Source: a plasmid
Reading direction: 5' to 3' (one strand)
Sequence record: NZ_CP118109.1
DNA length: 64,000 nucleotides
Below are positions 336-58,742 of the stretch, piece by piece (position 1 is the first letter of the stretch; each line of letters opens with the position of its first letter). The notes beneath the pieces were generated by a model, which was given only the letters and a program-made list of their open reading frames with translations, searched no databases and was not told the origin of the DNA. A program made the position numbers and the translations under genes.

Positions 336-360
336 AAAATTGAATAAGGAGGTGCACCCA

Positions 361-1728
361 GTGTCTGCATTTTACCCAGATAATTTTAAGTCAGAATTGA
401 AAGAGAAAGCTGATATTGTCCAAGTCATCAGTCAGTTTACAACACTTACTCCTATGGGAAGTAATGTATTTGGGATATGCCCATTTCACAACGATCATTC
501 ACCTTCGATGCAAATTCGTCCAGATACTCAGACGTTTTATTGTCATGCTTGCGGAGCTGGATCGAAAAACCATAGTACGGTACAAGCATCCGATGTTTAT
601 GGCTTTTTAAAAGGCATCTTAAATGTGAATATGGGCGGTGCGATCGAATGGCTCTCCAGTTTTCTGAATATTCCATTGCCGCCGATGAATCCCGAAGAAG
701 CAAAAAGAGAAAATATTAGATCTCAGTGGGTGCAATATTGTGAAGAATCTGGCAGGCGGTTTCATGACCGCTTGCTAGAGAGCACTGAAGGACTTAATTA
801 TCTATACAATCGGGGTTTCGATATTAATGATATCAAACTTTGGAATTTAGGATTAGGCGATGACCAAGTTTATGATTTTCGGAATACCAAGGATCGCATT
901 GTCTTTTCACTTTATGATTATTGGGGAAATCTGGTCAGTTTTACGGGTCGAGTGCTGCTTCCTGATAATGTTCTCAAAGCAAAAAATGATCAACTTAAAT
1001 CTGATAATAAGCCGACTATTGTTAAATACTTAGATCGAATCGGCCTTAAGAAAGACGATGCAAATTATGCTAATCACCCTTATCCTGAGTTTGTAAAAGG
1101 CGATCATCTATATGGTATTCACATTGCTAAAGATTTTATACGCAGATTCGGTGTTGCTATTATTGTTGAAGGTTGGACTGATATAATTAAGCTTCATAAA
1201 TACGGGGCGCAGCATGCCGTTGCTACAATGGGCGTGGCGCTTACATTAAATCAGGTCAAGTTATTAAAACGGGCAGGAGCAAAGAGTGCGATAATCATGC
1301 GTGATGGTGATCCTGCAGGTGAAGCTGCCATACAGCGTGATTCTAAAATATTAAAAGAAAATGGTATTGAGCCACTCGTCCTTGCGCTCTCTCCAGGACT
1401 TGATCCTTGCACTGTTTGCGATAACTTCAATATGGTGGATGATTCATTTGCTCGTTTTATTGAGCGTTATACCATGCAACTAAATCAGTATCGGCTTAAA
1501 CGGATCTATCAAGAAACGCATGAAGATATCGTTTATCATCAGTCAAGAATAAGTGGCTTGCAGAATGAGCGTATGCGTAAAGTAATTGAAGTCCTTAGCA
1601 GTATAGAGAATCCTGTTGAAAAGGATATCTATGTCCGTCAAGCATCTGAATTGTTTGGCGTAAACTATGAATCTATCCAGGCACATGTTTCGCATTATCA
1701 GGAGAAAGGTGTGTTCATGGTCAGATGA
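361..1728 (+). CDS. dnaG: DNA primase, DnaG family
   Basis: CHC2 zinc finger CPFHNDHSPSM...YCHACGAGS plus TOPRIM IVEGWTDIIKLHKYG; RBS aataaggagg precedes GTG at 361 (track start 340 is alternative). Confidence 0.85.
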   Translation: MSAFYPDNFKSELKEKADIVQVISQFTTLTPMGSNVFGICPFHNDHSPSMQIRPDTQTFYCHACGAGSKNHSTVQASDVYGFLKGILNVNMGGAIEWLSSFLNIPLPPMNPEEAKRENIRSQWVQYCEESGRRFHDRLLESTEGLNYLYNRGFDINDIKLWNLGLGDDQVYDFRNTKDRIVFSLYDYWGNLVSFTGRVLLPDNVLKAKNDQLKSDNKPTIVKYLDRIGLKKDDANYANHPYPEFVKGDHLYGIHIAKDFIRRFGVAIIVEGWTDIIKLHKYGAQHAVATMGVALTLNQVKLLKRAGAKSAIIMRDGDPAGEAAIQRDSKILKENGIEPLVLALSPGLDPCTVCDNFNMVDDSFARFIERYTMQLNQYRLKRIYQETHEDIVYHQSRISGLQNERMRKVIEVLSSIENPVEKDIYVRQASELFGVNYESIQAHVSHYQEKGVFMVR

Positions 1729-15311: not shown

Positions 15312-16652
15312 ATGACTATGACACTTGAACATGATATTGATTTAGATAAGAAGGTTGACCTGCAGCTGGCTGATGATGCGAATAAGGTAAGAAAGATAAC
15401 AATTAAGACTGCTGAGCTATTAAAAGCAGTGAGACGAGCTGTATCCATTGTTAACCATAATCATTCAACTCTTGTATTGCAAAATATATTCTTTGCTACT
15501 ACAGATAACGGAATTATTTTACGAGCTGTAAACGACAGCTTTTCTGTAGAAACAACAATCGATCCGGCACATTGCGTGATTGAAGATGATCCGAGATCTG
15601 TTTTGTTTCCAGCTAAGCGTCTTTTAGATATTGTCAGTAAAATGAGCGGAAAGAATACGACGATCTTTATTCGGGATAATTTCATTCGAATCAAGTCAGG
15701 TCGAGCTAATATGGATATTGGAGTCCAGGATGCAGACGAGTTCCCAAAACTGCCTCAGATCAAGAAAGGAAACACTTTCGAAATCGCTGCTGATGCATTG
15801 CTTGATATGTACACTCGTACAGTATTTGCAACCTCTAAGCTTGAAAGCATGCCTGTTTTGCAGGGCGTACTACATGACATTGAAGATCAAAGATTCCGCT
15901 GTATTGCAACGGATCGTCATCGTTTTGCGCAGGTCTATCATCCGACAACTATTGAGTGTGAGCCAATGCGTGTCAGCGTTCCTGCAATAACAATCAATGA
16001 AGTTATGAAGCATCTGAAAGAAAAGAAGGCTGATACGATCAAGGTTACAGTCAAAGACACTCGTGTAGTATACGATATGAACGATACTGTCCTTTACTCC
16101 CAGGTATTAGAAGGCACATATCCGGATACAAATCGAATCATCCCTACTGGAGCTAAGGCTACTGTGACAGTTCCTAATTCAGAGTTCCTAGGCGCAGTGA
16201 AGCGGGCAGCTATCTTTTTGGATGATTCTAATTCTTCTAAAATAACAATCATGATTGATGGCGAAAAGAACCAGATGCGCATTCAATCACTGGATAGTGA
16301 TGAAGGCACAATGTTAGAAGATATGGTAACACTAAAAGGAGAGGGCGGGTTTGCTTCATCCACGATGAATGGTCGTTATCTGCTTGAGTCCCTAAGCAGG
16401 ATTGGTGGCACTGCTCATGTTGAGATTAAGATGACATCAACAATGCCTTTTCTCTTAAGAGAAGCTAATGCTCTTGAAGGTAATGTAAATGTCGTTGTGC
16501 CTGTTAAGCATAGACTTGATAGCTCGAAATCTATCGAAAACTTTACGTCAAATTATAACGAAGAAGAAGCTGATCCTTTTGCTGGTCGTGCAGAGGAATA
16601 CGCTGAGCAGCAAGCTTCTGAGGCTACTGAAAGCCAAGAAGGAGCAGCTTAA
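15312..16652 (+). CDS. dnaN: DNA polymerase III beta subunit (sliding clamp) with acidic C-terminal tail
   Basis: ATDRHRFA (ATDGHRLA motif), RYLLESL; RBS gtggaggcg. Confidence 0.8.
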   Translation: MTMTLEHDIDLDKKVDLQLADDANKVRKITIKTAELLKAVRRAVSIVNHNHSTLVLQNIFFATTDNGIILRAVNDSFSVETTIDPAHCVIEDDPRSVLFPAKRLLDIVSKMSGKNTTIFIRDNFIRIKSGRANMDIGVQDADEFPKLPQIKKGNTFEIAADALLDMYTRTVFATSKLESMPVLQGVLHDIEDQRFRCIATDRHRFAQVYHPTTIECEPMRVSVPAITINEVMKHLKEKKADTIKVTVKDTRVVYDMNDTVLYSQVLEGTYPDTNRIIPTGAKATVTVPNSEFLGAVKRAAIFLDDSNSSKITIMIDGEKNQMRIQSLDSDEGTMLEDMVTLKGEGGFASSTMNGRYLLESLSRIGGTAHVEIKMTSTMPFLLREANALEGNVNVVVPVKHRLDSSKSIENFTSNYNEEEADPFAGRAEEYAEQQASEATESQEGAA

Positions 16653-22599: not shown

Positions 22600-22691
22600 T
22601 AAAAATGCATCAAAATACTGACAGGTATTATCATGGTGAGGGCCGCCTTTGTGCGGCTTTTCCCATGTATATCATCATATGGGGGATTCCT

Positions 22692-23738
22692 ATGTCAAAT
22701 AAGGTATATAATGACTCATTGTATAACGAGGATGTGAAATTAAAGTTCCTAGAGTTAATGAAAAAGAATGGTTGTTCTGAAAATACATTAGTTACATATA
22801 AGCGAGTTTTTCTACGCGCATCTGGATTAGAAAAAAGATTTAAGACGGATCTGTATGATTTTACATTCGAATATATAGAAAAACTCTTAATCAAGATGAA
22901 TCATACAACATTAAACTCCGCAATAAGCAGCATTAGCATCATAAGAAGTTACATTGATTGGGCGATACAGAACAAGTACAGAAAGGTGCCTTTAAGCCCA
23001 CTGGACGTATTCACTACGAAGGAATTGGCCCAGCGATACAAGAACAAACGAGTAAGAGTATATTTTACACATGCTGAAGTGCAAAAGTTTGCAGATAGCG
23101 CTGTGAATGCGCAGGATAAGGCTCTCATTTGGGCAATGTTTCATGGTATATGTGGAAATGGGATGGCAGAACTAAGGAATCTTACGTTGTATGATATTGA
23201 TCAGCATAACTATAAATTGACTCTTAAGGACGATGATTCAGAGAGAGTTATTGAACTCATCTCAGATGAACAAAAAAAATTGATCGACCACCTTCTTAAA
23301 GCCCATGAGCAAACTCATTATCTAAAGGGAAACGGAAAGTCTGTTGCTAAAAACCCTATCGGTTTCTTAGCAAAAAATAACCATGTATTTAGGCCTATGA
23401 TTCGTGGAGACAGTTCTACTGCTTCTTATCATGTTTTAAGAAATAGACTTGTAGATATATCAAAAATCAACGAAGAGCCGCAACTAACTTCCCCTATTTC
23501 GTTAAGATATAGTGGGATGCTTTATATGGCTTATTGTGAATATCAAAAGCATGGGGCGTTGAGTCTTGAGTCCATAAAGAGAATTTCAGATTTCTATGCT
23601 ATCAGTAAAGTAACTGATTCCAAATATGACAACTTCTTTATTCGAAGAGAATTTTTAACCGAAGAAACGATCATAAAGGAATATCTCTCTGGAGACGAAG
23701 GAGAAGAAGACTATGGAGTTGATGCAAAGATATTTTGA
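22692..23738 (+). CDS. tyrosine-recombinase/integrase-like protein (tentative)
   Basis: N-terminal SAM-like segment TLNSAISSISIIRSYIDWAI; C-terminal SYHVLRNRLV (HxLR-like) and downstream Tyr; motifs weak. Confidence 0.4.
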   Translation: MSNKVYNDSLYNEDVKLKFLELMKKNGCSENTLVTYKRVFLRASGLEKRFKTDLYDFTFEYIEKLLIKMNHTTLNSAISSISIIRSYIDWAIQNKYRKVPLSPLDVFTTKELAQRYKNKRVRVYFTHAEVQKFADSAVNAQDKALIWAMFHGICGNGMAELRNLTLYDIDQHNYKLTLKDDDSERVIELISDEQKKLIDHLLKAHEQTHYLKGNGKSVAKNPIGFLAKNNHVFRPMIRGDSSTASYHVLRNRLVDISKINEEPQLTSPISLRYSGMLYMAYCEYQKHGALSLESIKRISDFYAISKVTDSKYDNFFIRREFLTEETIIKEYLSGDEGEEDYGVDAKIF

Positions 23739-24581: not shown

Positions 24582-24660
24582 TGACATAAAGTTGCCTACT
24601 CGGCTAGAGAATTGACATAAAGTTACCCACCAGACTGGAGAGTGACATAAAGTTACCTAC
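24582..24660 (+). repeat. three direct iteron-like repeats TGACATAAAGTTRCCYAC at about 30-31 bp spacing
   Basis: copies at 24582, 24613, 24643. Confidence 0.8.
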
Positions 24661-24675
24661 CAGAAGCTGCCTAGG

Positions 24676-25048: not shown

Positions 25049-26092
25049 TTAACGAAGCAATTGAAGAACTGCTTGTGGTTGTTGGTTTGCTTGAGCCAAC
25101 ATTGCTTGAGCTGCTTGGGAAAGAATCGAGTTCTTAGTTTGCTCAACCATTTCTTTCGCCATGTCAACGTCACGAATACGGGATTCAGATGCTGTCAGGT
25201 TCTCTGCTGTTGTACCCAGGTTATTTACTGTGTGCTCCAAACGGTTTTGTACGGAACCCAATTTAGAACGCTCAGCAGATACGCTCTCGATCGCTGCGTT
25301 AATTGTAGTGATTGCTGTATCAGCGTCTTCTTGGTTAGAAATGTTGATACCAGCGTTTACTTTTGCTTCATCAGCATATGCTTCGTCAACTTTGACAACC
25401 ATTTTGTCGCCATCGTAGTAACCAGCTACAACAACATCATCTTCGGTTGCCTTTCTAGTTGTACCATTACCACTGCCATCGTCAATGTCGTCTCCGACAT
25501 TAACTGCTTCTTTAAAAGTAAGTGTAGTTGTTCCGGCAGTCAAAGTTGCAGTAGTGCCATCGTTATCAGATGTGTACTCTGTGCTTACTTTCAGCGCTTC
25601 AGCGCCCATGTCACTAATTGAAAGACTAATGCTTTGACCTGCATTTGCTCCGATTTGGAATGTAACATTTTCAGCAGAACCATTGATCAGCTTTTTCGTA
25701 TTGAACTCAGTGTCTGTAGAGATACGAGTCAATTCTTCAGCTAATTGGTTTACTTCTTTTTGAAGCTCTGCGCGGTCGGAATCCGTGTTTGTGTCAGATG
25801 CTGATTGAACTGCCAGCTCACGCATACGTTGCAGGATAGAATGAGATTCATTCAATGCACCTTCAGCTGTCTGGATCAGTGAGATACCATCTTGAGCGTT
25901 ACGAGAAGCTTGCTCAAGACCGCGGATTTGTCCACGCATTTTTTCGGAGATTGCAAGACCCGCTGCGTCATCACCAGCACGGTTGATGCGAAGACCGGAA
26001 GACAATTTCTCCATGTTTTTTCCTTGTGCAGAGTTAGCTGCGCCCAGGCTGCGTTGAGTGTTAATCGCCGCAATGTTGTGATTGATAATCAT
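25049..26092 (-). CDS. hag: flagellin
   Basis: N-terminal [17 protein letters not shown]...[30 protein letters not shown] and C-terminal flagellin helices; RBS GGAGG. Confidence 0.9.
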
Positions 26093-26150: not shown

Positions 26151-26348
26151 TTAGAGCGGCAGTCCATTTTGTCTGCAGAGCTCTTTTTGTTCGTCTGACA
26201 AGATCTCTTCCCTGAGTATCTTAACGTCATTCGGAGCAGTTATTTCTAACTTTGGATTGCCGTAATCATCGACCTTCACTTTAATATGTATGGAATTGCC
26301 GATAATGATCGACTCACCCGCTCTTCTGTTGACTGTTAATTTTCCCAT
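26151..26348 (-). CDS. csrA: carbon storage regulator CsrA
   Basis: MGKLTVNRRAGESIIIGNSIHIKVKVDDYGNPKLEITAPNDVKILREEI; track ORF over-extended upstream. Confidence 0.75.
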   Translation of the reverse strand: MGKLTVNRRAGESIIIGNSIHIKVKVDDYGNPKLEITAPNDVKILREEILSDEQKELCRQNGLPL

Positions 26349-26382
26349 GCCGACTACCAACTTCCCTATTGTGATAGTTATT

Positions 26383-26409
26383 TTATCGGCGGGATCCGGA
26401 AATAGTTTA
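26383..26409 (-). promoter_or_regulatory. sigma-D (sigma-28) type promoter TAAA-N15-GCCGATAA driving csrA-hag
   Basis: minus-strand tggtaTAAActatttccggatcccGCCGATAAaa, close to B. subtilis sigma-D consensus TAAA-N15-GCCGATAT. Confidence 0.6.
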
Positions 26410-26445
26410 TACCATTTTAAAAAAATTTTATTGGAGCTGATAAAT

Positions 26446-26790
26446 ATGAAATATAACCCTACTCTACTCAACGTTTTTAATCTTAATAAATTTGATCCTC
26501 GTGAGTTAACGTATAGCGAAAAAATGCTGGTCGAGGAATATCTTGGCGAAATCTTAGAGGAACAATATTCCGGAGACATCCAAGAAATTATCCATTATCA
26601 AGATAAACGCATTACATTTAGCGAGGATTCTGAAGGCTTCAAACTGCCCCTAGCAAACGATCTACCACTTGAATATAACCTATGGAATATAAATAGTTTA
26701 TTCGCCTATGGAGAGGCTGATATGGAGCTTGTGGCGGTCTTAGAGAATCCCGAAAATACAATGAATCAGGTGATGGTTAGTATGTATTAA
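26446..26790 (+). CDS. hypothetical protein
   Basis: ATG with ggag 8 nt upstream; track ORF 26290 is over-extended. Confidence 0.5.
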   Translation: MKYNPTLLNVFNLNKFDPRELTYSEKMLVEEYLGEILEEQYSGDIQEIIHYQDKRITFSEDSEGFKLPLANDLPLEYNLWNINSLFAYGEADMELVAVLENPENTMNQVMVSMY

Positions 26791-27481: not shown

Positions 27482-28009
27482 ATGATTGGCCTGCTTAGAC
27501 AGCGACCTGCGTTAATTGTTGGATTTATTGTAAATAGCGATACCCACATTGAAGCTGTACGTAATTTATTTCCTGTCGAGTACCATAAAAGGATGATCTT
27601 TCTTTCGCTAAGCGCGCTTGATCTAACCGATAATATGAAGCGTTATGTAACCATGCTAGGCAATCTTACTCATCATTTAATTATTTGCCTAGATCCTGGC
27701 CAAATCGCTGATGCTCTTACTCCTGTATTTAAGGAGTGGGTGCCTTCTGCCGAAGAAGTTGTTCTCAACGTTCCTTTGCTCGAATGCGAAAAAGAATATT
27801 TGGGTCTTCAAATTTTTGAAGCATACCGTTTTTCTGTTTGTGAGAAGAAACGTGCTAAAGAATTAATACCCTGCATAAATTGTACCAAGATGACCTATAT
27901 TATCGACTCTAGCTGGAATGTGCCTTTATGTAGTGATGCATGCTTTGAAGAATGGGAATCGAATCATGCGAAGAAGCTGCGCTCAAAACGCCATAAGCAA
28001 AAATTATAA
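27482..28009 (+). CDS. hypothetical protein with C-terminal Cys cluster
   Basis: RBS cacgaggtgagg. Confidence 0.55.
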   Translation: MIGLLRQRPALIVGFIVNSDTHIEAVRNLFPVEYHKRMIFLSLSALDLTDNMKRYVTMLGNLTHHLIICLDPGQIADALTPVFKEWVPSAEEVVLNVPLLECEKEYLGLQIFEAYRFSVCEKKRAKELIPCINCTKMTYIIDSSWNVPLCSDACFEEWESNHAKKLRSKRHKQKL

Positions 28010-28159
28010 TATCTAAGCGGATGATTGGATGTTTTCAGTTGTCCGCTTCTTTGTTTTTCGATTTTTATCTACCTTCTTCCCTCTCATTTTTACCGCCTCC
28101 GTTTGATAGTTTCTACTCTTTTTATACCCTATTTGCTAGGACGAACACAAGTCTTTTGT

Positions 28160-28470
28160 CGATTCACTTATCCACAGCTCTGCCTATTATTTATATATGG
28201 TGGAGAAAAGATTTTATTAAAGAAAGTACTTCTTTGCGTTAAATTTTTTAACCCCCCTCTTTAAAATTTTTAACGTAATAGCCTTTCGTTAAAATTTTTA
28301 ACGTAATGTTTTTGCCTAAAATCGTTACGTTAAAAATTTTAACATAAGGGTTATCCACAGATCGATCTACTACGTTAAAATTTTTAACGTAATGAGCTTC
28401 AACTCTCAAATTCGTTACGTTAAAAATTTTAACGTAAGAGATAACCACAAAATCTGTGGATAACTTTTCA
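28160..28470. other. oriC-like replication origin: three perfect DnaA boxes plus AT-rich palindromic repeat array
   Basis: TTATCCACA at 28168 and 28351, TGTGGATAA at 28455, degenerate ATAACCACA at 28441; sits next to initiator-like gene. Confidence 0.6.
28245..28436. repeat. five to six copies of 23-bp AT-rich palindrome TTACGTTAAAAATTTTAACGTAA
   Basis: copies near 28261, 28288, 28325, 28371, 28414; each is self-complementary. Confidence 0.8.
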
Positions 28471-28475
28471 ATAAA

Positions 28476-28510
28476 AAAAGCAGAAGGATGTCTCCCTCTG
28501 CTCTCTTTTT
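28476..28510. terminator. bidirectional terminator
   Basis: aaaaaaa-gcagaagg-atgtct-ccctctgc-tctcttttt. Confidence 0.5.
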
Positions 28511-29501
28511 ACAAAAATTTTTCTGCTGTAGTAACACAAATAATTGCATCATTATTGTTGGTCAAATCTCTAAAGATGTTAAGAATTTGCTTCGAATGAT
28601 AATTATCAATCCATTCTGCAGCGAATGGCGCAGGCGCAAGCACCACCAGTTTGTTATCTTCGAAGAACCCAAAAGTCTCTTTAAACCATGTGCCAAATGT
28701 AACGGCGCTTATAGATCGTTTCAAGATATCTTCGATCTCACTCCATAAGTGAATGTCTTGAGGTGTTCGATTCAGGAACAGCTCTTCACGTTTTTTGTTG
28801 ATCCTTACTTCCAACGGAGCGGTGACTTCAATTGATCCAGGTGTTCTAGCTCTCCCCTTCTCATGCAGCTTCTTAATCTCGTCTTCATGATCATTATTCT
28901 CTGGGAGCATAACCTCGTTAGACTCAAAAAGTTTTTCCATAAAGCGATTATGTTGAAGGAGTAGCCACTCAGGCAGCTGCTTCAGCTCTGCCTCACTTAA
29001 GAAAGGAACGGTCTGTCTTACTTTCACTCGAGTGCTATCATTCATTCCCTTTTTCTTTTTACTCTCTGCCCAGAACCGCATAACAAAACCGTAGTCTTCA
29101 AGTTTACTTAGGTATTTAATCAGTGTAACACGACTGATCCCCATCATTTCTGCCATGTGTTCTTGTGACATATGAGGGATTGATTCGTTGAATGAAAGGC
29201 TCAGATAATTTATGTAGGTCATGGTAGCTTCTGGCCCAAGAAAGTATTGCCAAAATTTAATCAGATAATTGTGAACGGTGGTTTTGTTGCCTGGTGTGTA
29301 AGGCAGTGAAAGACCCAAGTTCTCGAGCGAATAACTAGTGACATCTTTTTCAGTGTAATAGATCTTCCTCGTCTCCTCGACCATTTCCTCAATGCTCTCC
29401 CCGTTAACTTTTCTTTTTCGCGGCACCTTATTTCCCGTCTTTTCATAGCGGAAATAATGTATGTCATTCGTGCTGTCGCCCATCTTCAAAGACCTCCTCA
29501 A
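28509..29501 (-). CDS. replication-initiator/organizer-like protein with central HTH
   Basis: MAEMMGISRVTLIKYLSKLEDYGFV helix-turn-helix; adjacent to DnaA-box origin. Confidence 0.5.
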   Translation of the reverse strand: MRRSLKMGDSTNDIHYFRYEKTGNKVPRKRKVNGESIEEMVEETRKIYYTEKDVTSYSLENLGLSLPYTPGNKTTVHNYLIKFWQYFLGPEATMTYINYLSLSFNESIPHMSQEHMAEMMGISRVTLIKYLSKLEDYGFVMRFWAESKKKKGMNDSTRVKVRQTVPFLSEAELKQLPEWLLLQHNRFMEKLFESNEVMLPENNDHEDEIKKLHEKGRARTPGSIEVTAPLEVRINKKREELFLNRTPQDIHLWSEIEDILKRSISAVTFGTWFKETFGFFEDNKLVVLAPAPFAAEWIDNYHSKQILNIFRDLTNNNDAIICVTTAEKFL

Positions 29502-29507
29502 GTAATT

Positions 29508-29536
29508 GACAGGAATAGGAGGCTCCGATATACTAG
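29508..29536 (+). promoter_or_regulatory. promoter TTGACA-17-TATACT
   Basis: direct read. Confidence 0.5.
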
Positions 29537-29733
29537 ACCTAACGTAAAAATCATATTCCTCTATATCTCTCTGATGATTCTCTCAATTTTCAAGGAGCCA
29601 TGACACTAAAGTCTAGGTATAGCAGGAACCTTTAAGCCACCTGACCACGGGTGGCTTTTTCCTTTTATTGATATTAACATACATTCTTAGACTTTGGAAA
29701 CTCCCCCAGTACTTTTATCACCAAGGTATGATT

Positions 29734-29762
29734 TGACAACGACTTGACACTAAAAGTTTGGT
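29734..29762 (+). promoter_or_regulatory. promoter TTGACA-17-TATACT (tandem TTGACA)
   Basis: direct read upstream of 29804. Confidence 0.5.
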
Positions 29763-29803
29763 ATAATATACTAAACCCAACAAATGGATGTTGGGTGGTC
29801 ATT

Positions 29804-30352
29804 ATGAAATATGTCAAAGGCTTAGACGAAAAATACTACGGAGAGATGATCGTAGAGATCGACCAAAAGTTCCAGGCGCTCCATGCAAAATTGAATCTGT
29901 ATTGCCCTGGGCTGCATTTAATGCCCACGCCGGTTACTGTAGAGGGTGTTCAATATCCTTATCCTCTTGCAGCACAAATACGAGAGATCTATCTCTATAT
30001 GATCGGTCAAAGAGAAATGCCGCAAGACATAGTAAGCATGCTAGAAAGTATCTGCTCTCTAATTTGGGAGAACAACTTTCTGAATGAAACATTCTTTACT
30101 ATCGACTGGCTAAAGTGGGAAAAAACCTTGATCGGAAGGTTTGTAAGATGCACCTACATAAGAATTACACTAGATGCTGGCGAACCGATCACAGCAAAAC
30201 AATTGGCGCTTATGACTGGCCTTACACCGGCTGGTATAGTAAAAGCCATAAATACCAAGAGGCTTCATGGGCGGAAGATCAAGAGCGAATGGTCTATTCC
30301 AGCGGAAGATGCCACCACTTTTATTTGGAAGCACGTCAATACATCAAGATAG
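29804..30352 (+). CDS. HTH DNA-binding protein
   Basis: RBS gggtgg; ITAKQLALMTGLTPAGIVKAINTKRL; track start 29744 is over-extended. Confidence 0.5.
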   Translation: MKYVKGLDEKYYGEMIVEIDQKFQALHAKLNLYCPGLHLMPTPVTVEGVQYPYPLAAQIREIYLYMIGQREMPQDIVSMLESICSLIWENNFLNETFFTIDWLKWEKTLIGRFVRCTYIRITLDAGEPITAKQLALMTGLTPAGIVKAINTKRLHGRKIKSEWSIPAEDATTFIWKHVNTSR

Positions 30353-34755: not shown

Positions 34756-37700
34756 TTAGCTAAATTCCACCTGGAACTGATTCATTATTTCCTCTTCCGA
34801 TTGTTCGGCATGATCCATGTACGTAATTTTATCTACGATGAGATCTGAACCGCTTCGTTTGCCGACGACTTTAATCTTGCGTCCGATAATGAAGTCATCT
34901 GCATTCTTGCTCCATATCTTATTGAAGATGACTAGACTCAATTCATCCTCTGCCGTCTCTATCTTCGCCTTACCTGTTACCTTGCCGCTACTCTTGGCTG
35001 TGAAAGGCTTAGACTCTATAATGTAGCCGGTGAACGTGATATTCTCTCTGCCATCTTCAATGCTATCCCACCGAGAACGAATGCTTACATTTGTGCCGAG
35101 CATTTCACGCTCATAGGCGATAATGTCCTTCTTCGTTGTTTTGGATGGCATATGTTCAAACTCTTCGCCGCGGTATTCGAAATATCTGCGCAATAAGAGA
35201 TTGCGGTTGTCGGATATTGTATCGAAACTTCCGGACTTAATGAGATTGGATGTTTTTGTTTTATTGAGTTTCATTGTTCTATTGGCCAATAAGAAATCAT
35301 CAAATTCTTTGAATGGTCGGCATTCCGTAATGACATCAAGATCTTTGCTGCTGACTCCTGCGATACTTGCAAGGCCATACAAAATCTTACCAAGACCTTC
35401 TTCGCCCTCTTGAGCATTGATTGGTGTCCAGCTGTCGTTAGAGTAGTTGATATCTGGTGGCAGGATGCTGATTCCCATTTCTTCGCATTCTTTCATGTAT
35501 GCAACGTTACGGGGAACACCATCTTTCAGCTTGCCCTCTGAGATTGTCATGAGCGCAGCCATAAACTCTGTTGGATAGTAAGCCTTCAGATAAGCTGTCA
35601 TAACAGAGAGTACTGCGTAGCAAGCGCTATGCGCATAGTTGAAGCAGTAGTCACCGAACTTGATCCAGTCTTCTTTGATTTTAAGAAGTGTTGCCTCGTC
35701 ATATCCAAGGGAAATAGCTCCTGGAATGTTAAGTGGCTCTTTGCCTTTAGCGATTAGCTCAGCATCTTTTTCAGCGCTGCCATAGATCATGTAGTTGATC
35801 CATTCTTCCATTAGTGCGTGATTCTTTTTCGAGATGGCTTTACGCAGGATATCAGATTGACCGGTAGTGAATCCTCCAAGAATCATGGAAGCTTTCATGA
35901 TCTGCTCTTGGTAGACCCAAATACCATAGGTCTTTCCAAGAACCGGCTCTAAGCTATCGAACGGATAAGTAACTCTCTCTTGTCCTTTCTTTCTTCGGAT
36001 ATAAGAGGGAATAAGGTCGAGTGGTCCTGGTCTGCCTAACGCTACGATAACGGAAATATCCTCTACATTTGAAGGCTCCATGTCTTTGATGATTCCGCGG
36101 AATAGATCAGACTCGCACTGGAAGATTCCTGAGAGATTCAGCTTATTATAAATTTCTTCATAAATCTTCGGATCATTAAAGTTAATTGTATTCAGATCAA
36201 GCTCCATAATCCCTGCATTCTGCTTCGTCTTCTTGATCAGGTCGAGGGTAGACAGCTTAAGAATGTCGAATTTAACTAGGAACTTTTCGATCCACTCCAT
36301 ATCGTATTGAGTTGTCGTAAGTCCTTCCTTATCCAGTCGAAGAGGTACGGTGTTCGTAAGCGGCTTAGGTGAAAGAACGATGCCTCCAGCATGCACTCCT
36401 GCACTTCTGACGTGCCCCTCAAGTGCTTTGGCAGCTTGCCACCATTCAGGATATCTATCTGCATACATCCGAGTTTCAGGTGATATCTGATAAGCACCAT
36501 CCACTTCTTTTCCGTTTTTATTAATATACTTGTCTAATGTAATGCCTGGCGTTTCGGGAATAGACTTCGCAAACCGGTCTTGATCCTGCGCACCGTATCC
36601 AAGTGCCTTACCAACTGCACGAATAACCGATCTACCTGCAAGAGTTCCATAGGTGCCAATCTGAGCTACGTTAAGATCACCGTATTTCTGCTTCATGTAT
36701 TCCTGTACAGCTCTAGCGCCTTCATAGGAGAAGTCTACGTCGATATCTGGATAGCCTGCGCGTTCTGGATTCAGGAAGCGCTCAAACATTAGATCCCATT
36801 TAATCGGATCGATCGTTGTAATGCCAATAACGAAAGCAACGAGTGAACCGGCAGCGGATCCCCTTCCAGGTCCTACTTCGAATCCATTTTCCTTCGCCCA
36901 GTTAATATAGTCAGATACAATCAGAAAGTAATCAGCAAATCCAAGTGGATTAATAACACTCAGCTCATATTGAAGCTGTTGACTGTATTGCTCCAGATCA
37001 ATCGGCGTCTTTAATGCGTAGGTGAACAGCCGGTTCCATGCCAGCTTCTCTAGCTGCTCTTCCGCTGTATCATTCTCATCAACAATGTATTTAGGGAACA
37101 AAGGATCTTTGGGCAAGTCTACATCGACCAACTCTGCAATTCTGAGCGTATTTTCAATGGCTTCATCATCGTTAATAATCTCACGAATCTCATCCTCTGA
37201 TTTCATCCAGAACTCATGAGCGTATACCAAGCGATCATTATCATGAATACATTTATTCATACTGGATGCAACTAGAATATCGTGGATGTCACGGTCGTCT
37301 TTATTGGCATAGTGAACATCTGTTGTTACGATTTTCGGCGTGTTTGTTTCCAGAGCCAGCTGGTCAATGATTTCATTAAGCCTGATTTGCTCTGGGATGC
37401 GCGTTGCCTGCTTCTCCAAATAAAATGAGTGAAACGTCTCTTTGCACTCCTGTATGAATGAGCGACACTCTGCCAGATCACCAGCAAGGGCAAAGCGAGC
37501 AAGGTAACTACCAAGACAAGCAGAGGTAGCAATAATGTGCTTGCCAAGACCACGATCACGAATAAAGGCAAGATCGGTACGAGGATTACTATAAAAACCG
37601 CTGATATGAGCATCTGAAATAATTTCATATAAGTCCTCCAATCCTTGTTGGTTAGTGGCCATCAGGACAATATGAAAGTTATCATGCTTGATTAGTTCAT

Positions 37701-38211
37701 AGAACTCTTTCCGGAAGTCTTCAAGCGCATCGTCTGGCGAAAACCCTACAACGAGTGGTTTCTCTTCTTCCATCATGCCGAAACCAAACAAGTCTAATTC
37801 TTCTTCTGATCCACTAGCCATAGACTTAAGATCTTCACGCATGATGTAGTCCTTTAGCAGCTCCCGAGCTTCAAGCATAAAGTTATCAGGATTGTTTCTC
37901 ACTGCTTTCCGAAATGCCTTCCAAGCCTTGTCCTTGATGCCGTATTTCTCTAAAAAAATAGCTTTTGAAGCTTTATGGAAATCACTTTTAAGGTGGCGAT
38001 TCTTCGTCATATAAGCTTCGCAGCCTGGGATCGGTTTGATCCCTTCCTCTTTGCATGCCGTTATAAAATCGGGAATAGCCCCGCAAACGCCGTGATCCGT
38101 AATGGCGAGCGCGGAGCTACCGATTTCCTTTGCACGCTTGACGAGGTCTTTTACGGTAGAAAGACCATCAAGCTCTGAGTATTCACAGTGTACATGTAAA
38201 TGATTGATCAT
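34756..38211 (-). CDS. dnaE: DNA polymerase III alpha subunit (DnaE-type, N-terminal PHP domain)
   Basis: PHP HVHCEYSELDG...ITDHG; GFEVGPGRGSAAGSLVAFVIGIT; RBS aaggagag. Confidence 0.9.
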   Translation of the reverse strand: MINHLHVHCEYSELDGLSTVKDLVKRAKEIGSSALAITDHGVCGAIPDFITACKEEGIKPIPGCEAYMTKNRHLKSDFHKASKAIFLEKYGIKDKAWKAFRKAVRNNPDNFMLEARELLKDYIMREDLKSMASGSEEELDLFGFGMMEEEKPLVVGFSPDDALEDFRKEFYELIKHDNFHIVLMATNQQGLEDLYEIISDAHISGFYSNPRTDLAFIRDRGLGKHIIATSACLGSYLARFALAGDLAECRSFIQECKETFHSFYLEKQATRIPEQIRLNEIIDQLALETNTPKIVTTDVHYANKDDRDIHDILVASSMNKCIHDNDRLVYAHEFWMKSEDEIREIINDDEAIENTLRIAELVDVDLPKDPLFPKYIVDENDTAEEQLEKLAWNRLFTYALKTPIDLEQYSQQLQYELSVINPLGFADYFLIVSDYINWAKENGFEVGPGRGSAAGSLVAFVIGITTIDPIKWDLMFERFLNPERAGYPDIDVDFSYEGARAVQEYMKQKYGDLNVAQIGTYGTLAGRSVIRAVGKALGYGAQDQDRFAKSIPETPGITLDKYINKNGKEVDGAYQISPETRMYADRYPEWWQAAKALEGHVRSAGVHAGGIVLSPKPLTNTVPLRLDKEGLTTTQYDMEWIEKFLVKFDILKLSTLDLIKKTKQNAGIMELDLNTINFNDPKIYEEIYNKLNLSGIFQCESDLFRGIIKDMEPSNVEDISVIVALGRPGPLDLIPSYIRRKKGQERVTYPFDSLEPVLGKTYGIWVYQEQIMKASMILGGFTTGQSDILRKAISKKNHALMEEWINYMIYGSAEKDAELIAKGKEPLNIPGAISLGYDEATLLKIKEDWIKFGDYCFNYAHSACYAVLSVMTAYLKAYYPTEFMAALMTISEGKLKDGVPRNVAYMKECEEMGISILPPDINYSNDSWTPINAQEGEEGLGKILYGLASIAGVSSKDLDVITECRPFKEFDDFLLANRTMKLNKTKTSNLIKSGSFDTISDNRNLLLRRYFEYRGEEFEHMPSKTTKKDIIAYEREMLGTNVSIRSRWDSIEDGRENITFTGYIIESKPFTAKSSGKVTGKAKIETAEDELSLVIFNKIWSKNADDFIIGRKIKVVGKRSGSDLIVDKITYMDHAEQSEEEIMNQFQVEFS

Positions 38212-39482: not shown

Positions 39483-39731
39483 TTAATTATCTCCGCTTAC
39501 TGCCTCTTCATCTTCGGTTGTGAGATCTGAATACATTTCTCGGTTGCATAAGACAATTTGATTAAAGAACTTACTGGGTACAATTAGATTTCCTGCAACA
39601 ACATAGTTATCTCGTTCAGTGATTTCTTTCAGTCTTAGTTCCAATGGAAAATGATTTAAGTTGTTCGAACAATCCAAGGTGGCAACTCCAGCAATCATAG
39701 TGTTCTCGTTAAAGTTCATCATCGTAGACAT
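39483..39731 (-). CDS. hypothetical protein
   Basis: ORF track. Confidence 0.4.
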   Translation of the reverse strand: MSTMMNFNENTMIAGVATLDCSNNLNHFPLELRLKEITERDNYVVAGNLIVPSKFFNQIVLCNREMYSDLTTEDEEAVSGDN

Positions 39732-40498
39732 TTTATTTCTCCCTTTACACGTTTTTCGCGGAAGCTATCAGCGATTCGTTTTCGAATGCGATAAACAGAT
39801 CGATGATGGAGCCCGTTAATTCGAGCAATCTCTCTATCTGTCATGCCTTCATCGTAAGCCTTAAGAAGAATAAATCTTTCGCTATAACTCAGTTCTTTGA
39901 ACAAATCGCTACCTACTATGCCGTTCAACCACAGAATATTGTCCAGTTCAGTATACTCATCAACCTCCATATTTAGAGGCTCATAATAATACTTGTTTTC
40001 TATGATGCTGTCTATGGCTCGATCGTCATTTATGTAGCGGTCATCTTTGTAAGAGTACTGTTCTTCTTCCATACTCTCGAACATCTTATTATCCACAAAC
40101 CGCTTTACTCGGTATCTAAACACACTGTATACATATCGGCTAAAGCCGAATCCCATTTCTTTATAGGAGTGCGCACATTCTAACAATACGATTAGCAGCT
40201 CATGCTCAATCTCCGCTATATCATAGACGGAGAAAGTGTCTCGAATGTTCTTGATGACATCATAAACCTTCTCGATCGTTTCGCTTTTGCATCCTCCAGC
40301 TTTACAAAGATCATTGATGATTTCAGCTTCCCGAATGAAGCAGGATAAAAATCGCTTAGAATCATAGCTTTTAAAATCCATTTCTCCGTAGACGAGAAGC
40401 CTGCTGTATCTTCGTATCATCTTGTGATATCTTCTCATCAGAGGATTGGCATCGCCTTCTTCAAGATAACTATGAAGCGGATCGTGTTGCTTCTTCAT
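39719..40498 (-). CDS. sigma-70-family sigma-factor-like protein (region 4 HTH)
   Basis: MTDREIARINGLHHRSVYRIRKRI; RBS gaggaagg. Confidence 0.5.
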   Translation of the reverse strand: MKKQHDPLHSYLEEGDANPLMRRYHKMIRRYSRLLVYGEMDFKSYDSKRFLSCFIREAEIINDLCKAGGCKSETIEKVYDVIKNIRDTFSVYDIAEIEHELLIVLLECAHSYKEMGFGFSRYVYSVFRYRVKRFVDNKMFESMEEEQYSYKDDRYINDDRAIDSIIENKYYYEPLNMEVDEYTELDNILWLNGIVGSDLFKELSYSERFILLKAYDEGMTDREIARINGLHHRSVYRIRKRIADSFREKRVKGEIKCLR

Positions 40499-57464: not shown

Positions 57465-58568
57465 TTAGTTTTGATAAATCTTAGAGGCGAATCGGCGCTG
57501 AGCTTCATCTTCCGCTTGGATAAACAGAGAGTAATCGGGAATAAAATTAAAGAACTTAGTACTCTTCATGGATGCGTGCTTATTCTTAGCGAACTTCACT
57601 TCCACGACAGGCATCTTCAAGTCTTCATCTTCATCGACCCAATAGATTTCAGCATTCTCTTCCTTGATGCCGACTTCGTTGTACATAAGGCAGACCATTG
57701 TTGCTTCATAACGAAGAGTGATTGTATCCTTCAGATCATCCTCTATCGGACGCTTGCCGTTCGTTTTACGCAAGTGAGCTGTACACATAACGACAACATC
57801 AAATCTTGTAGCCCAGCCTTTGATCGTTTTAGATACGTGAGCCGTCTTATCATCATTGTTGCTGAAGGTCTTGCTCTCTACTGTCAAGTCATTGAAGGAG
57901 TCAATTGCAATTACGATTCGAGTGCCTTCAGGCATCGTCATCTTAATATCCTTGATGTGCTCTTCAATGGCTTCAACGCTGGTCATATCATTGGAATCGA
58001 ACATGCCGAAGCGGTCTACTCTGCGATACAGGTTCTTGATTCCTTCATTACGCTTATTGATAATCTCTTCATCGTCTTCATACTTAGCTGGCGACTTTGC
58101 TTGGCCGATCGTGATTTGTTGATCGTTGGCAATATAGCGCGGCATAAGATCGTTATTGGCATCATCAAGCGAATGATACGAAACATAGACCTTTTCATTT
58201 CTCTCTGATATTCCTTTACATACTTGAAGCATGTAGGCGGATTTACCGACGTTTGGTGCAGCGGCAAATAAGATAAGCCCAGGCTGAGCCCCGCCTTCAA
58301 AGGCGTCATCGAATGATTGCAACCCTGAAATTAATCCCCCGTTTTTCCCTCTGGCCCATGAGTGAGCATCCATATTCATGATATTGCGGAGCATCTTTTC
58401 TTCGATTCTGTTTAACGGACGACCAAGTATTCCCTCGACATTTGTAACAATAACCTTTTTTCTCATTTCGGGCTCAAAGCCGAATGCATTTGGATCTTGC
58501 TGCATTTGTCTTTCAACTTGATGCATGATGTCCGTAAAACTAAATTGTCCTGGCTGTGTATTGCTCAT
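57465..58568 (-). CDS. DnaB-family replicative helicase (RecA-like C-terminal domain)
   Basis: LILFAAAPNVGKSAYMLQV Walker A in DnaB-C context; RBS ggaaggag; track ORF over-extended. Confidence 0.75.
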   Translation of the reverse strand: MSNTQPGQFSFTDIMHQVERQMQQDPNAFGFEPEMRKKVIVTNVEGILGRPLNRIEEKMLRNIMNMDAHSWARGKNGGLISGLQSFDDAFEGGAQPGLILFAAAPNVGKSAYMLQVCKGISERNEKVYVSYHSLDDANNDLMPRYIANDQQITIGQAKSPAKYEDDEEIINKRNEGIKNLYRRVDRFGMFDSNDMTSVEAIEEHIKDIKMTMPEGTRIVIAIDSFNDLTVESKTFSNNDDKTAHVSKTIKGWATRFDVVVMCTAHLRKTNGKRPIEDDLKDTITLRYEATMVCLMYNEVGIKEENAEIYWVDEDEDLKMPVVEVKFAKNKHASMKSTKFFNFIPDYSLFIQAEDEAQRRFASKIYQN

Positions 58569-58742
58569 AGCTGCTCCTTCCATACGGCTTATCTCTCTCC
58601 CGTGTAATACCTGCGAGTGTTCGTAAGCATTACACAGGGAGAGATCCCTGTGTGTTGTGTGTTGGGTGAAGTTGAGGTTCGAGCAGGGTCCTAAGCTGCC
58701 CCTTACAAGGTGCGTATAAAAACACAACCCTCTAAGGGACGC
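58569..58742. other. GC-rich structured intergenic element with about 20-bp imperfect hairpin and split palindrome half-sites
   Basis: atctctctcccgtgtaatac ... gtaagcattacacagggagagat; CA-rich tract. Confidence 0.4.

Follow-up and report, generated by a model that had tools for sequence, protein, structure and literature searches.

A probable pBS72 RepA-type replicon with palindromic iterons and host DnaA boxes on a phage-like plasmid of Paenibacillus

The interval from position 28168 to position 28463, together with the adjoining rep gene and its leader, probably constitutes the plasmid-maintenance replicon of a phage-plasmid and belongs to the pBS72 RepA family. Positions are those of the window, by which we mean the whole 64-kb stretch of DNA that was analyzed (sequence record NZ_CP118109.1), and the individual features are collected in Table 1. 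Origins of this type, in which sites for a plasmid initiator are mixed with perfect sites for the host DnaA, are already known from the Bacillus plasmid pBS72. The original prediction had described a replication origin served by the adjoining helix-turn-helix (HTH) protein, which is very likely correct, given that this protein (Rep) is a homologue of pBS72 RepA and that layout and boxes are kept in relatives. The label "oriC-like" is not supported, since the initiator is of the RepA type, no dnaA gene was found next to the origin or elsewhere in the window, and the sign of the GC skew is opposite.

Table 1. Features of the origin locus and replisome genes, in order of position in the window
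Feature	Position	Strand	Remarks
DnaG gene	340-1728		Replisome gene apart from the origin
DnaN gene	15312-16652		Replisome gene apart from the origin; dnaN-like gene 12 kb away
Terminator of the convergent gene 27482-28009	28015-28048	+	-19.5 kcal/mol, z -5.2
DnaA box A, exact TTATCCACA	28168-28176	+	Outermost box
Box A module	28168-28192	+	Exact box, spacer GCTCTGC (28177-28183), CTA TTA TTT (28184-28192)
Candidate DNA unwinding element	28184-28235		Least stable duplex of the locus (nearest-neighbor ΔG)
Two partial iterons	28256-28278 and 28234-28255		Half-degenerate; C6 run 28252-28257 between them
Iteron 4, TTTCGTTAAAATTTTTAACGTAA	28284-28306		1-2 positions off the 23-mer
Iteron 3, TTACGTTAAAAATTTTAACATAA	28325-28347		1-2 positions off the 23-mer
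DnaA box B, exact TTATCCACA	28351-28359	+	Inside the iteron array
Iteron 2, CTACGTTAAAATTTTTAACGTAA	28370-28392		1-2 positions off the 23-mer
Iteron 1, TTACGTTAAAAATTTTAACGTAA	28415-28437		Palindromic; only exact copy of the originally predicted 23-mer
Degenerate DnaA box, ATAACCACA	28441-28449	+	2 mismatches; inverted pair with box C
DnaA box C, exact TTATCCACA	28455-28463	-	First element past the rep terminator
rep intrinsic terminator	28473-28508	-	Fold -22.2 kcal/mol, z -6.2; A-tract before stem, U-tract after
rep, 324 aa	28509-29483	-	Likely start ATG 29483, preceded by GAGGAGG; same 324 aa annotated by NCBI
Promoter, TTGACA-17-TATACT	29506-29534	+	11/12 positions matched; would drive the candidate countertranscript
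Candidate countertranscript, ∼124 nt	29541-29664	+	Antisense to the rep mRNA leader; fold z -3.4
Candidate extended -10 of the rep promoter, TGTTAATAT	29671-29679	-	Putative; upstream of the leader hairpin
Near-consensus promoter	29744-29772	+	
DnaE gene	34756-38211		Replisome gene apart from the origin
DnaB-like gene	57465-58727		Replisome gene apart from the origin

DnaA boxes, iterons, and the AT-rich region

All three exact DnaA boxes of the original prediction are present and lie within 296 bp. Given the base composition, chance would place 0.71 exact boxes in the window and 0.0033 in 296 bp, and the Poisson probability of at least three in such an interval is 6e-9 (∼1e-6 after correction for 216 windows). 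The only other exact copy of TTATCCACA in the 64 kb is isolated at 40089, ∼11.6 kb from the origin. Boxes with one mismatch showed no excess across the window (13 observed versus 16.4 expected), and the DnaA signal therefore lies in the perfect boxes clustered at this locus. The degenerate box at 28441 was recovered as well and forms the inverted repeat CCACAAAATCTGTGG together with box C. A published description of oriC calls for at least three DnaA boxes with a mean spacing below 100 bp (PMC7561715); here, the exact boxes are spaced by 183 and 104 bp, with a mean of 143 bp, or of 96 bp if the 2-mismatch box is counted.

Six palindromic repeats, four of them full and two partial, occupy positions 28234 to 28437 and are absent from the rest of the window. 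A search for ACGTTAAAAWTTTTAACGT with up to 3 mismatches yielded 5 matches in the window, all within 28258-28435, versus 0.02 expected, and the sixth, partial copy (28234-28252) was found by a repeat search. The prediction of five to six palindrome copies thus holds in number, although the exact 23-mer occurs only in iteron 1 and the other copies are diverged or half-degenerate. The center-to-center spacings are 45, 45, 41, 26, and 26 bp, and the array starts 72 bp and ends 275 bp past the rep stop. Rather than as the DNA-unwinding element originally proposed, the palindromes are best read as putative Rep binding sites (iterons), because their flanks shift from clade to clade (ACGTTAA, ACCTTAA, TGGTTAA, ATCAAAA, CTCAAAA, and TATGAAAAA) in parallel with the recognition helix and wing of Rep, with the DnaA boxes staying exact. 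At the same time, the central A/T tract of the iterons is kept (AAAAWTTTT in most clades), and this pattern of co-variation indicates sequence-specific protein binding.

Duplex stability also argues against unwinding within the palindromes, since the minimum of the locus lies outside the array. The 30-bp segments at 28184-28235 have a ΔG of -30.7 to -31.0 kcal/mol, as against a window-wide mean of -38.1 (standard deviation, 3.1), and fall in the least stable 1% (above -31.2 kcal/mol); the array itself is AT-rich and fairly unstable, with ∼-33 kcal/mol per 30 bp. An AT-rich stretch is found at the equivalent position in relatives, and the related loci L004 and L005 keep the box, the GC-rich spacer, and the AT-rich DNA 367 to 369 nt past the rep stop. 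In the box A module, the complement of CTA TTA TTT reads 3'-GAT AAT AAA-5' and is DnaA-trio-like; the box-to-trio orientation was judged against the R1/13-mer arrangement of Escherichia coli. DnaA-trio modules have been defined by a box, a spacer of at most 16 bp, and at least three DnaA-trios beside the unwinding site (PMC8287927). With box A, its 7-nt GC-rich spacer, three trio-like triplets, and the least stable DNA of the locus, the origin region partly resembles the basal unwinding system of oriC (PMC8287927, PMC6669920); L004 and L005 have just two triplets of this kind. Unlike in oriC, box A is single and not part of a tandem pair, relatives keep the triplets only in part, a second initiator has iterons of its own, the dnaA/dnaN context is missing, and the skew has the opposite sign.

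The Rep protein and its relatives

The open reading frame and the HTH of the predicted 330-aa gene at 28509-29501 are present, with the correction that the likely start at 29483 gives a protein of 324 aa. Rep consists of an N-terminal β-hairpin, a winged HTH (∼aa 90 to 160, with the HTH itself at ∼aa 90 to 140), a helical linker, and a C-terminal region resembling DnaA domain I (∼aa 246 to 318). Pfam models detected DnaA_N with an E value of 1.6e-8, above the curated cutoff, as well as HTH_36/HTH_Crp_2, and the PHROG match of Rep is 26369, "replication initiation protein" (E, 2e-31). In a tblastn comparison, Rep matched pBS72 RepA (KX711616, positions 135-1115) with 26% identity and 93% query coverage (E, 1e-28). 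Since pBS72 RepA also contains DnaA_N (E, 3.7e-13) and HTH_36, and Rep aligns with the RepA family including its invariant motifs, these comparisons identify Rep as a full-length homologue of RepA from the Bacillus subtilis theta plasmid pBS72. The family comprises 42 cluster representatives at an E value of ≤1e-30 among 1.84 billion proteins.

Profile searches matched the C terminus of Rep to DnaA domain I (4tps_B, from B. subtilis, and 8btg_A; E, 3e-15), and 4tps is also the best Foldseek match of an AF2 model of Rep, which is of moderate confidence (pLDDT, 72; alignment of 9 sequences). Residues T265, W266, and F287 of Rep align with T26, W27, and F49 of DnaA, and alanine substitutions at these DnaA positions abolish DnaD binding and DnaD recruitment (PMC10201431). 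As judged from this alignment, the C-terminal copy of DnaA domain I in Rep keeps the residues that DnaA uses to bind DnaD. The presence of this domain copy suggests that Rep itself may stand in for DnaA at the recruitment step of helicase loading. The original prediction had overlooked the domain.

Nucleotide searches with the 3-kb locus gave no match in phage records and, in plasmids, only a 142-bp stretch with 73% identity, so comparisons were made through the Rep protein. Nine related loci came from a scan of genome contigs and further ones from plasmid records. Relatives with a 26 to 52% identical Rep share a common order of elements, namely, the rep stop, a terminator, a DnaA box, palindromes with one or more boxes, a G/C run, and an AT-rich stretch. 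Exact DnaA boxes occur within ∼400 bp past the rep stop in 12 of the 21 related loci and nowhere else in these 4- to 13-kb loci, except for two inside rep of phage Jenst. Like box C, an exact box lies 46 to 50 nt from the rep stop in L004 and L005; relatives also have exact boxes within the array, in positions and orientations that vary by clade. The half-degenerate repeat pair around the G/C run recurs in L004, L005, L007, L008, L012, L013, L017, L019, L025, and pBS72. Several family members, e.g., L017 and L023, keep iteron arrays without any DnaA box; hence, not every member of the family requires DnaA.

The closest known system is pBS72, on whose replicon the vectors pHT01 and pNDH33 are based. 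It reportedly replicates in theta mode with host primosome proteins, and Titok et al. are said to have found in 2006 that it needs RepA, DnaB, DnaC, DnaD, DnaG, DnaI, DnaE, and PolC, but not DnaA. The two initiators are homologous over their full length and combine a winged HTH (HTH_36) with a C-terminal DnaA domain I (DnaA_N), and in both systems an iteron origin adjoins rep, with its elements in the same order: in pBS72/pHT01, a terminator comes after repA, and then GATTAAAATTTAAT as the AT-rich palindromic repeat, a G-run, and a single exact TTATCCACA. The window differs in the low sequence identity, in its iteron (ACGTTAAAAWTTTTAACGT versus GATTAAAATTTAAT), in having three perfect boxes and one degenerate DnaA box instead of one, in the GC spacer and AT-rich stretch accompanying the outermost box, and in its carrier, which is a ∼215-kb phage-like element with replisome genes of its own and not a conjugative plasmid.

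Other plasmid origins show parts of the same layout. P1 oriR, F oriS, pSC101, and RK2 oriV have an array of Rep sites flanked by DnaA boxes, an AT-rich unwinding region, and an adjoining rep, and P1 is a phage kept as a plasmid. The window likewise has these elements side by side, whereas its initiator is unrelated, its repeats are palindromic instead of directly oriented iterons, and its Rep carries a copy of DnaA domain I. Assignment to the Rep_3-type iteron plasmids was rejected on the grounds that the Pfam search of Rep gave no Rep_3 match at an E value of ≤1 and that the repeats are palindromic. RepA_N initiators, known from plasmids of staphylococci and enterococci (pSK41 and pTZ2162), bind iterons with an N-terminal winged helix and engage host replication proteins with a C-terminal domain. 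Rep follows the same domain logic, with a weak fold similarity of its winged HTH to 4pql and 4pt7 (Foldseek E, ∼0.01; probability, 0.97 to 0.99), but it differs in lacking a sequence-level match and in having DnaA domain I as its C-terminal domain. RepA_N plasmids have their origins inside rep; this class was also dismissed, since Pfam returned no RepA_N match for Rep and both repeats and boxes lie outside the gene.

Transcription around the origin and the carrier element

Flanking terminators and promoters were found as predicted, with a strong hairpin on either side of the origin and near-consensus promoters on the plus strand at 29506-29534 and 29744-29772. The rep terminator may be active in both directions, because its stem is preceded by an A-tract and followed by a U-tract; a counterpart hairpin follows rep in L004 and L008. 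On the far side, the terminator of the convergent gene marks the outer boundary of the origin region, which should remain untranscribed because it sits between convergent terminators. Within the candidate countertranscript, a terminator hairpin (29634-29657) is followed by a T-run, and the conservation of an antisense promoter and hairpin upstream of rep in L004, L005, L007, L008, and L012 suggests countertranscript-based copy control of rep. An Rfam scan assigned the RNA to no family, with subthreshold matches only, due to the palindromes, and when six candidate countertranscripts were analyzed with RNAalifold, the terminator hairpin alone was supported and compensatory changes were absent. 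The candidate extended -10 element, TGTTAATAT, is kept in L004 and reads TGGTAATAT in L007, L008, and L012. An 18-aa leader ORF (ATG at 29554, TGA overlapping the rep Shine-Dalgarno sequence) was considered for translational coupling of the tap-repA type and discarded, as it is not conserved in L004.

The source record is labeled a plasmid by NCBI, and the Rep protein is 100% identical to an entry from Paenibacillus urinalis named [quoted passage not shown] The element encodes a virion structural protein (PHROG 19670; E, 4e-105) related to phage 0305phi8-36 and an endolysin of the Amidase_3 type, and a close relative (L003/L027) is present in IMG/VR. By its gene content, the carrier is a ∼215-kb phage-like plasmid of Paenibacillus, i.e., a 0305phi8-36-like phage-plasmid, in which virion and lysis genes share one extrachromosomal element with a plasmid replicon. 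Given such a carrier, maintenance in the plasmid state would be the natural role of the origin, as originally proposed. No match to Rep was found in phage 0305phi8-36, which fits the plasmid replicon being an add-on module. The positions of the DnaG, DnaN, DnaE, and DnaB-like genes (Table 1) confirm that the origin is separate from the DnaE/DnaB/primase module. The GC skew of the window is positive up to about 27 kb and negative beyond, and the genes on both flanks converge on the origin locus; at the dominant bidirectional origin of Firmicute chromosomes, skew and gene direction show the opposite pattern. The skew gives the origin no support, being opposite in sign and tracking the coding strand.

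For the ∼210-kb phage-like plasmids of Paenibacillus and Bacillus, distant relatives of the jumbo phage 0305phi8-36 whose maintenance in the cell has not been described so far, the region at ∼28.0-29.75 kb is a candidate minimal replicon. Rep extends the small pBS72 RepA family, which provides a natural series of matched iteron/Rep specificities useful for work on initiator-DNA recognition and incompatibility. The retention of DnaD-binding residues in a plasmid initiator makes the idea that Rep substitutes for DnaA addressable by point mutation, and the replicon is a possible large-capacity, low-copy vector backbone for Paenibacillus.

Proposed mechanism and alternative readings

In the mechanism that we propose, Rep dimers would bind the six 23-bp palindromic iterons via the winged HTH, as suggested by the co-variation of iterons and protein and by the homology to pBS72, and host DnaA would bind the three perfect boxes bracketing and interrupting the array, consistent with their exact matches and their conservation in relatives. 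The resulting nucleoprotein complex would melt the AT-rich DNA at 28184-28235, to which both its duplex stability and its position between the array and the outermost box point. The DnaA domain I copy of Rep would then recruit DnaD and hence either DnaB/DnaI-DnaC helicase loading or the DnaB-like helicase of the element, and replication would run in theta mode. Copy number would probably be limited by iteron handcuffing and by the ∼124-nt countertranscript against the rep leader. Lytic replication, which may start at a different origin, would rely on the DnaE, DnaN, primases, and helicase that the element itself encodes.

It is possible, though rather doubtful, that the origin is as described but fires independently of its DnaA boxes. 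Rep alone would then assemble the complex and replace DnaA through its domain I copy, and the boxes would serve to adjust timing or copy number, to titrate DnaA, or to tie the plasmid to the cell cycle of its host. Such independence would agree with the box-free arrays of several family members, with the variation of box number, position, and orientation between clades, with the DnaD-binding residues on Rep itself, and with the dispensability of DnaA that was reportedly found for pBS72 by Titok et al. in 2006. Yet the window's own clade keeps three or four perfect 9-mers at matching offsets amid diverged DNA, and box A is followed by a GC-rich spacer, which is conserved, and by the least stable DNA, in an arrangement resembling the DnaA-driven unwinding module of oriC. 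In addition, a passage in one report describes the pBS72 derivative pNDH33 as "thought to" be DnaA dependent (PMC5615212).

Far less credible is a DnaA-driven, oriC-like origin that would unwind at the AT-rich palindromes and have the HTH protein as a mere accessory. The three perfect boxes and the fairly unstable array would suit it, but the palindrome flanks co-vary with Rep around a constant central tract, the stability minimum lies elsewhere, Rep is homologous to a plasmid initiator of proven function, dnaA is missing from the neighborhood, and the sign of the skew is wrong. We also regard it as very unlikely that the array is no origin at all but a transcriptional operator or partition centromere bound by the winged-HTH protein. 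Palindromic arrays bound by such proteins are also found at plasmid centromeres and operators, and L007 and L008 have an actin-like (MreB-like_C) gene close to rep. The array of the window, however, lies between convergent terminators and contains only weak promoter-like matches (9/12, at chance level) with no gene to drive, and no partition gene adjoins it in the window; moreover, Rep matches pBS72 RepA in both architecture and sequence, DnaA domain I included, and array and DnaA boxes occur together across the family.

An extension of the preferred reading, a plasmid-maintenance replicon of the pBS72 RepA family, is that the DnaA domain I copy of Rep acts as a switch between the plasmid and lytic replication modes of the jumbo phage, which we consider unlikely. 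In the plasmid state, the Rep domain would dock DnaD or pair with domain I of box-bound DnaA, and the host replisome would, if this holds, be loaded once per cell cycle. Upon induction, the origin would pass, by way of this domain or of its displacement, to the phage's own replisome of DnaB-like helicase, primase, and DnaE. Part of the DnaA surface used by SirA-type regulators is preserved in the domain I copy of Rep, and host regulators of DnaA could therefore switch off replication of the element as well.

The probable origin locus and Rep protein

The original prediction of a replication origin beside an initiator gene proved right in outline, but its oriC-like character did not hold, since Rep, the product of the adjoining rep gene, is homologous to RepA of plasmid pBS72 and shares its architecture. 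The DnaA-box cluster and palindrome array first seen there were both confirmed in the noncoding stretch at 28050-28470, which is flanked by two convergent hairpin terminators. The probability of three exact boxes within 296 bp is 6e-9 under a Poisson model (∼1e-6 with position correction), base composition giving an expectation of 0.0033 per 296 bp and 0.71 per window. One further exact TTATCCACA in the 64 kb lies isolated at 40089-40097 (+), inside the open reading frame (ORF) 39719-40498 and ∼11.6 kb from the origin, in keeping with the 0.7 copies per window expected by chance. Box C and a two-mismatch box at 28441 make up an inverted pair. Between the boxes lie six copies of a 23-bp palindrome, four full and two partial, whose core ACGTTAAAAWTTTTAACGT is unique to the array (5 matches versus 0.02 expected in the whole window); the exact 23-mer quoted earlier occurs only once.

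Features of the origin, the rep control region, and the replisome genes
Feature	Position	Strand	Remark
Terminator hairpin	28015-28048	+	Closes gene 27482-28009
DnaA box A, TTATCCACA	28168	+	Exact
DnaA box B, TTATCCACA	28351	+	Exact
DnaA box C, TTATCCACA	28455	-	Exact
Full palindromes	28415, 28370, 28325, 28284
Partial palindromes	28256, 28234
Terminator hairpin	28473-28508	-	Closes gene 28509-29483 (rep)
Promoter TTGACA-17-TATACT	29506-29534	+	Near consensus; upstream of rep, directed away from it
Candidate countertranscript, ∼124 nt	29541-29664	+	Predicted; antisense to rep leader
Countertranscript terminator hairpin	29634-29657		Plus T-run
Putative rep promoter	29679-29671	-	Extended -10 TGTTAATAT; beyond hairpin 29634-29657
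DnaG primase	340-1728
Beta clamp	15312-16652
DnaE polymerase	34756-38211
AEP-like primase and DnaB-like helicase	57465-59840

Rep probably has 324 amino acids, starting at the ATG at 29483 after the ribosome site GAGGAGG, and is identical to the NCBI entry [quoted passage not shown], which is indexed to a contig of 214,846 bp. Pfam models place a winged helix-turn-helix (HTH_36, HTH_Crp_2) at amino acids 90 to 140 and a C-terminal DnaA_N domain at 252 to 311 (E value of 1.6e-8, scoring above the curated cutoff), and PHROGs returned a replication initiation protein (2e-31). Searched against the PDB, the family profile matched domain I of Bacillus subtilis DnaA (4tps_B, 3e-15; also 8btg_A), and 4tps was the top Foldseek match of the AlphaFold model of Rep (pLDDT 72). 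The central portion of the model is similar to winged helices of the MarR type and, more weakly, to the N-terminal domain of RepA from staphylococci (4pql, 4pt7). In a pairwise alignment, T265, W266, and F287 of Rep pair with DnaA T26, W27, and F49, whose replacement by alanine is lethal and eliminates both the binding of DnaD and its recruitment to oriC (PMC10201431). Rep has a DnaA domain I of its own, through which it probably recruits DnaD.

Using tblastn, we found Rep homologues on 42 plasmid records from Bacillus, Paenibacillus, Cytobacillus, and relatives, mostly of 80 to 390 kb, including pBS72 itself and the pBS72-derived vector pHT01. Brevibacillus phage Jenst has a homologue too, and PJN02/FADO-type Bacillus phages have a relative of the N-terminal part only. 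With 42 representatives among 1.84 billion proteins (E ≤ 1e-30), this is a small family, and the HTH_36 plus DnaA_N architecture is common to it, including pBS72 RepA, which is encoded by the first gene of KX711616 (26% identity, 93% coverage, E value of 1e-28). pBS72 is a theta replicon with experimental study behind it. According to Titok and colleagues in 2006, it reportedly depends on RepA, an iteron origin, and the primosome and polymerases of its host, with DnaA dispensable, and RepA is said to carry a domain homologous to the helicase-binding domain of DnaA. A later paper describes a pBS72 derivative as “thought to” be DnaA dependent (PMC5615212). Judged by these homologies, the origin very probably belongs to the pBS72 family of plasmid origins and is no oriC; it would provide a defined replicon for jumbo phage-plasmids.

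Predicted iterons, DnaA boxes, and the probable unwinding site

We inspected the stretch downstream of the rep stop codon in 21 loci encoding Rep relatives. Exact DnaA boxes occur within ∼400 bp of the stop in 12 of them, and nowhere else in these related loci of 4 to 13 kb except for two inside the rep homologue of phage Jenst. The offsets are 46, 150, and 333 nt in the window and 49, 184, 226, and 367 nt in its closest relatives, L004 and L005 (Rep 51 to 52% identical). The conserved order is terminator, box, palindrome array with one or more boxes, two half-degenerate repeats flanking a G/C run, and an AT-rich stretch; in the window's clade, a GC-rich spacer and then an outer box follow.

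Common to the palindromes is a central A/T tract (AAAAWTTTT in most clades), but their outer bases are clade specific: ACGTTAAAAWTTTTAACGT in the window, ACCTTAAAWTTTTTAAGGT in L004 and L005, TGGTTAAAAATTTTAAC in L007, L008, and L012, ATCAAAAATTGAT in L013, CTCAAAATTTGAG in L023, TATGAAAAATTCTTTCATA in plasmid pBP1 (L025), GATTAAAATTTAAT in pBS72, and TAGTATTAAATTTTTTAACAC in phage PJN02. The recognition helix and wing of Rep vary in parallel with these outer bases. Invariant DnaA boxes beside repeats that drift with the plasmid's Rep are what would be expected if the repeats were Rep sites and the boxes real DnaA sites, and the palindromes are therefore best read as predicted iterons, offering a natural set of matched Rep/iteron specificities. 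The proposal that they form the unwinding element, as merely easily melted DNA, is disfavored by this covariation and by the location of the least stable DNA, at 28184-28235, in the interval that separates box A from the last partial iteron (-30.7 to -31.0 kcal/mol in 30-bp nearest-neighbor windows, against a window mean of -38.1, within the least stable 1%). This AT-rich stretch beside the outer box is probably the unwinding site.

On the 3' side of box A, GCTCTGC is followed by CTA TTA TTT (complement 3'-GAT AAT AAA-5'), in what we take to be the orientation of E. coli R1 and its 13-mer. Loosely defined, the oriC basal unwinding system consists of a box, a spacer no longer than 16 bp, and three or more NAN triplets (PMC8287927), and the arrangement here agrees with that. 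In L004 and L005, the box and GC spacer are retained with only two such triplets, and the resemblance is suggestive only.

A run of 5 to 7 C (or G) beside an iteron half-site, at 28252-28257 near the array end in the window, also occurs in pBS72 (L010/L011), L004, L005, L007, L008, L012, L013, L017, L019, and L025. It is kept across the whole Rep family though the iteron flanks are unrelated. In pBP1, five tandem DnaA boxes (one exact, four with one mismatch; period of ∼9 to 10 bp) lie 24 to 70 nt past the rep stop, followed by nine copies of TATGAAAAATTCTTTCATA. The Jenst boxes (L001) lie 417 and 444 nt before the stop, with no exact box downstream; the origin of that phage may be internal to the rep homologue, which a “partition protein” gene adjoins.

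The putative rep control region

The region upstream of rep resembles the countertranscript copy control of other plasmids. Given that the probable rep promoter lies beyond the hairpin, the small RNA would be antisense to the leader of rep over its full length. The antisense promoter, hairpin, and -10 element are kept in five relatives from two clades, the countertranscript promoter and terminator being conserved in L004, L005, L007, L008, and L012. Outside the terminator, the aligned relatives showed no covariation, and no Rfam family matched the candidate.

The 5' end of the candidate antisense RNA covers the start of an 18-amino-acid leader ORF (MIFTLGLVYRSLLFLSIT, 29554-29498, minus strand), whose TGA stop overlaps the Shine-Dalgarno sequence of rep (TGAGGAGG); conservation of this ORF does not extend to L004. 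A 21-nt direct repeat occurs at 29601-29621 and 29745-29765 (TGACACTAAAGTCTAGGTATA / TGACACTAAAAGTTTGGTATA), the second copy being the near-consensus promoter of the divergent gene 29744-30352 (182 to 202 amino acids), which neighbors rep in L004 and L005 too.

The carrier element

Much of a replisome is encoded by the element itself, and its two-primase arrangement, with an AEP-like primase adjoining a DnaB-like helicase, matches that described for phage 0305phi8-36 (PMC2147016). Also encoded are a ribonucleotide reductase, thymidylate kinase, endolysin, tyrosine recombinase, and a virion protein akin to its counterpart in 0305phi8-36 (219 kb); IMG/VR lists a close relative. Given that 0305phi8-36 itself gave no match to Rep, the rep-ori unit appears to be a module for plasmid maintenance that a jumbo-phage genome has acquired. 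GC skew switches sign near 27 kb, from positive to negative, and the genes on either side converge on the origin locus; the skew tracks the coding strand, lends no support to a dominant bidirectional origin, and argues mildly against one.

Flagellin and CsrA-like genes lie close to rep (25049-26092 and 26151-26579, both minus strand), and pBP1 carries the same hag and carbon-storage-regulator pair beside its rep homologue (L025 1095-2267). Three tandem ∼30-bp units, each starting with TGACATAAAGTTRCC, lie at 24582-24664, between the genes for tyrosine recombinase (22605-23738) and flagellin, and could be a recombinase site, a partition site, or stacked promoters.
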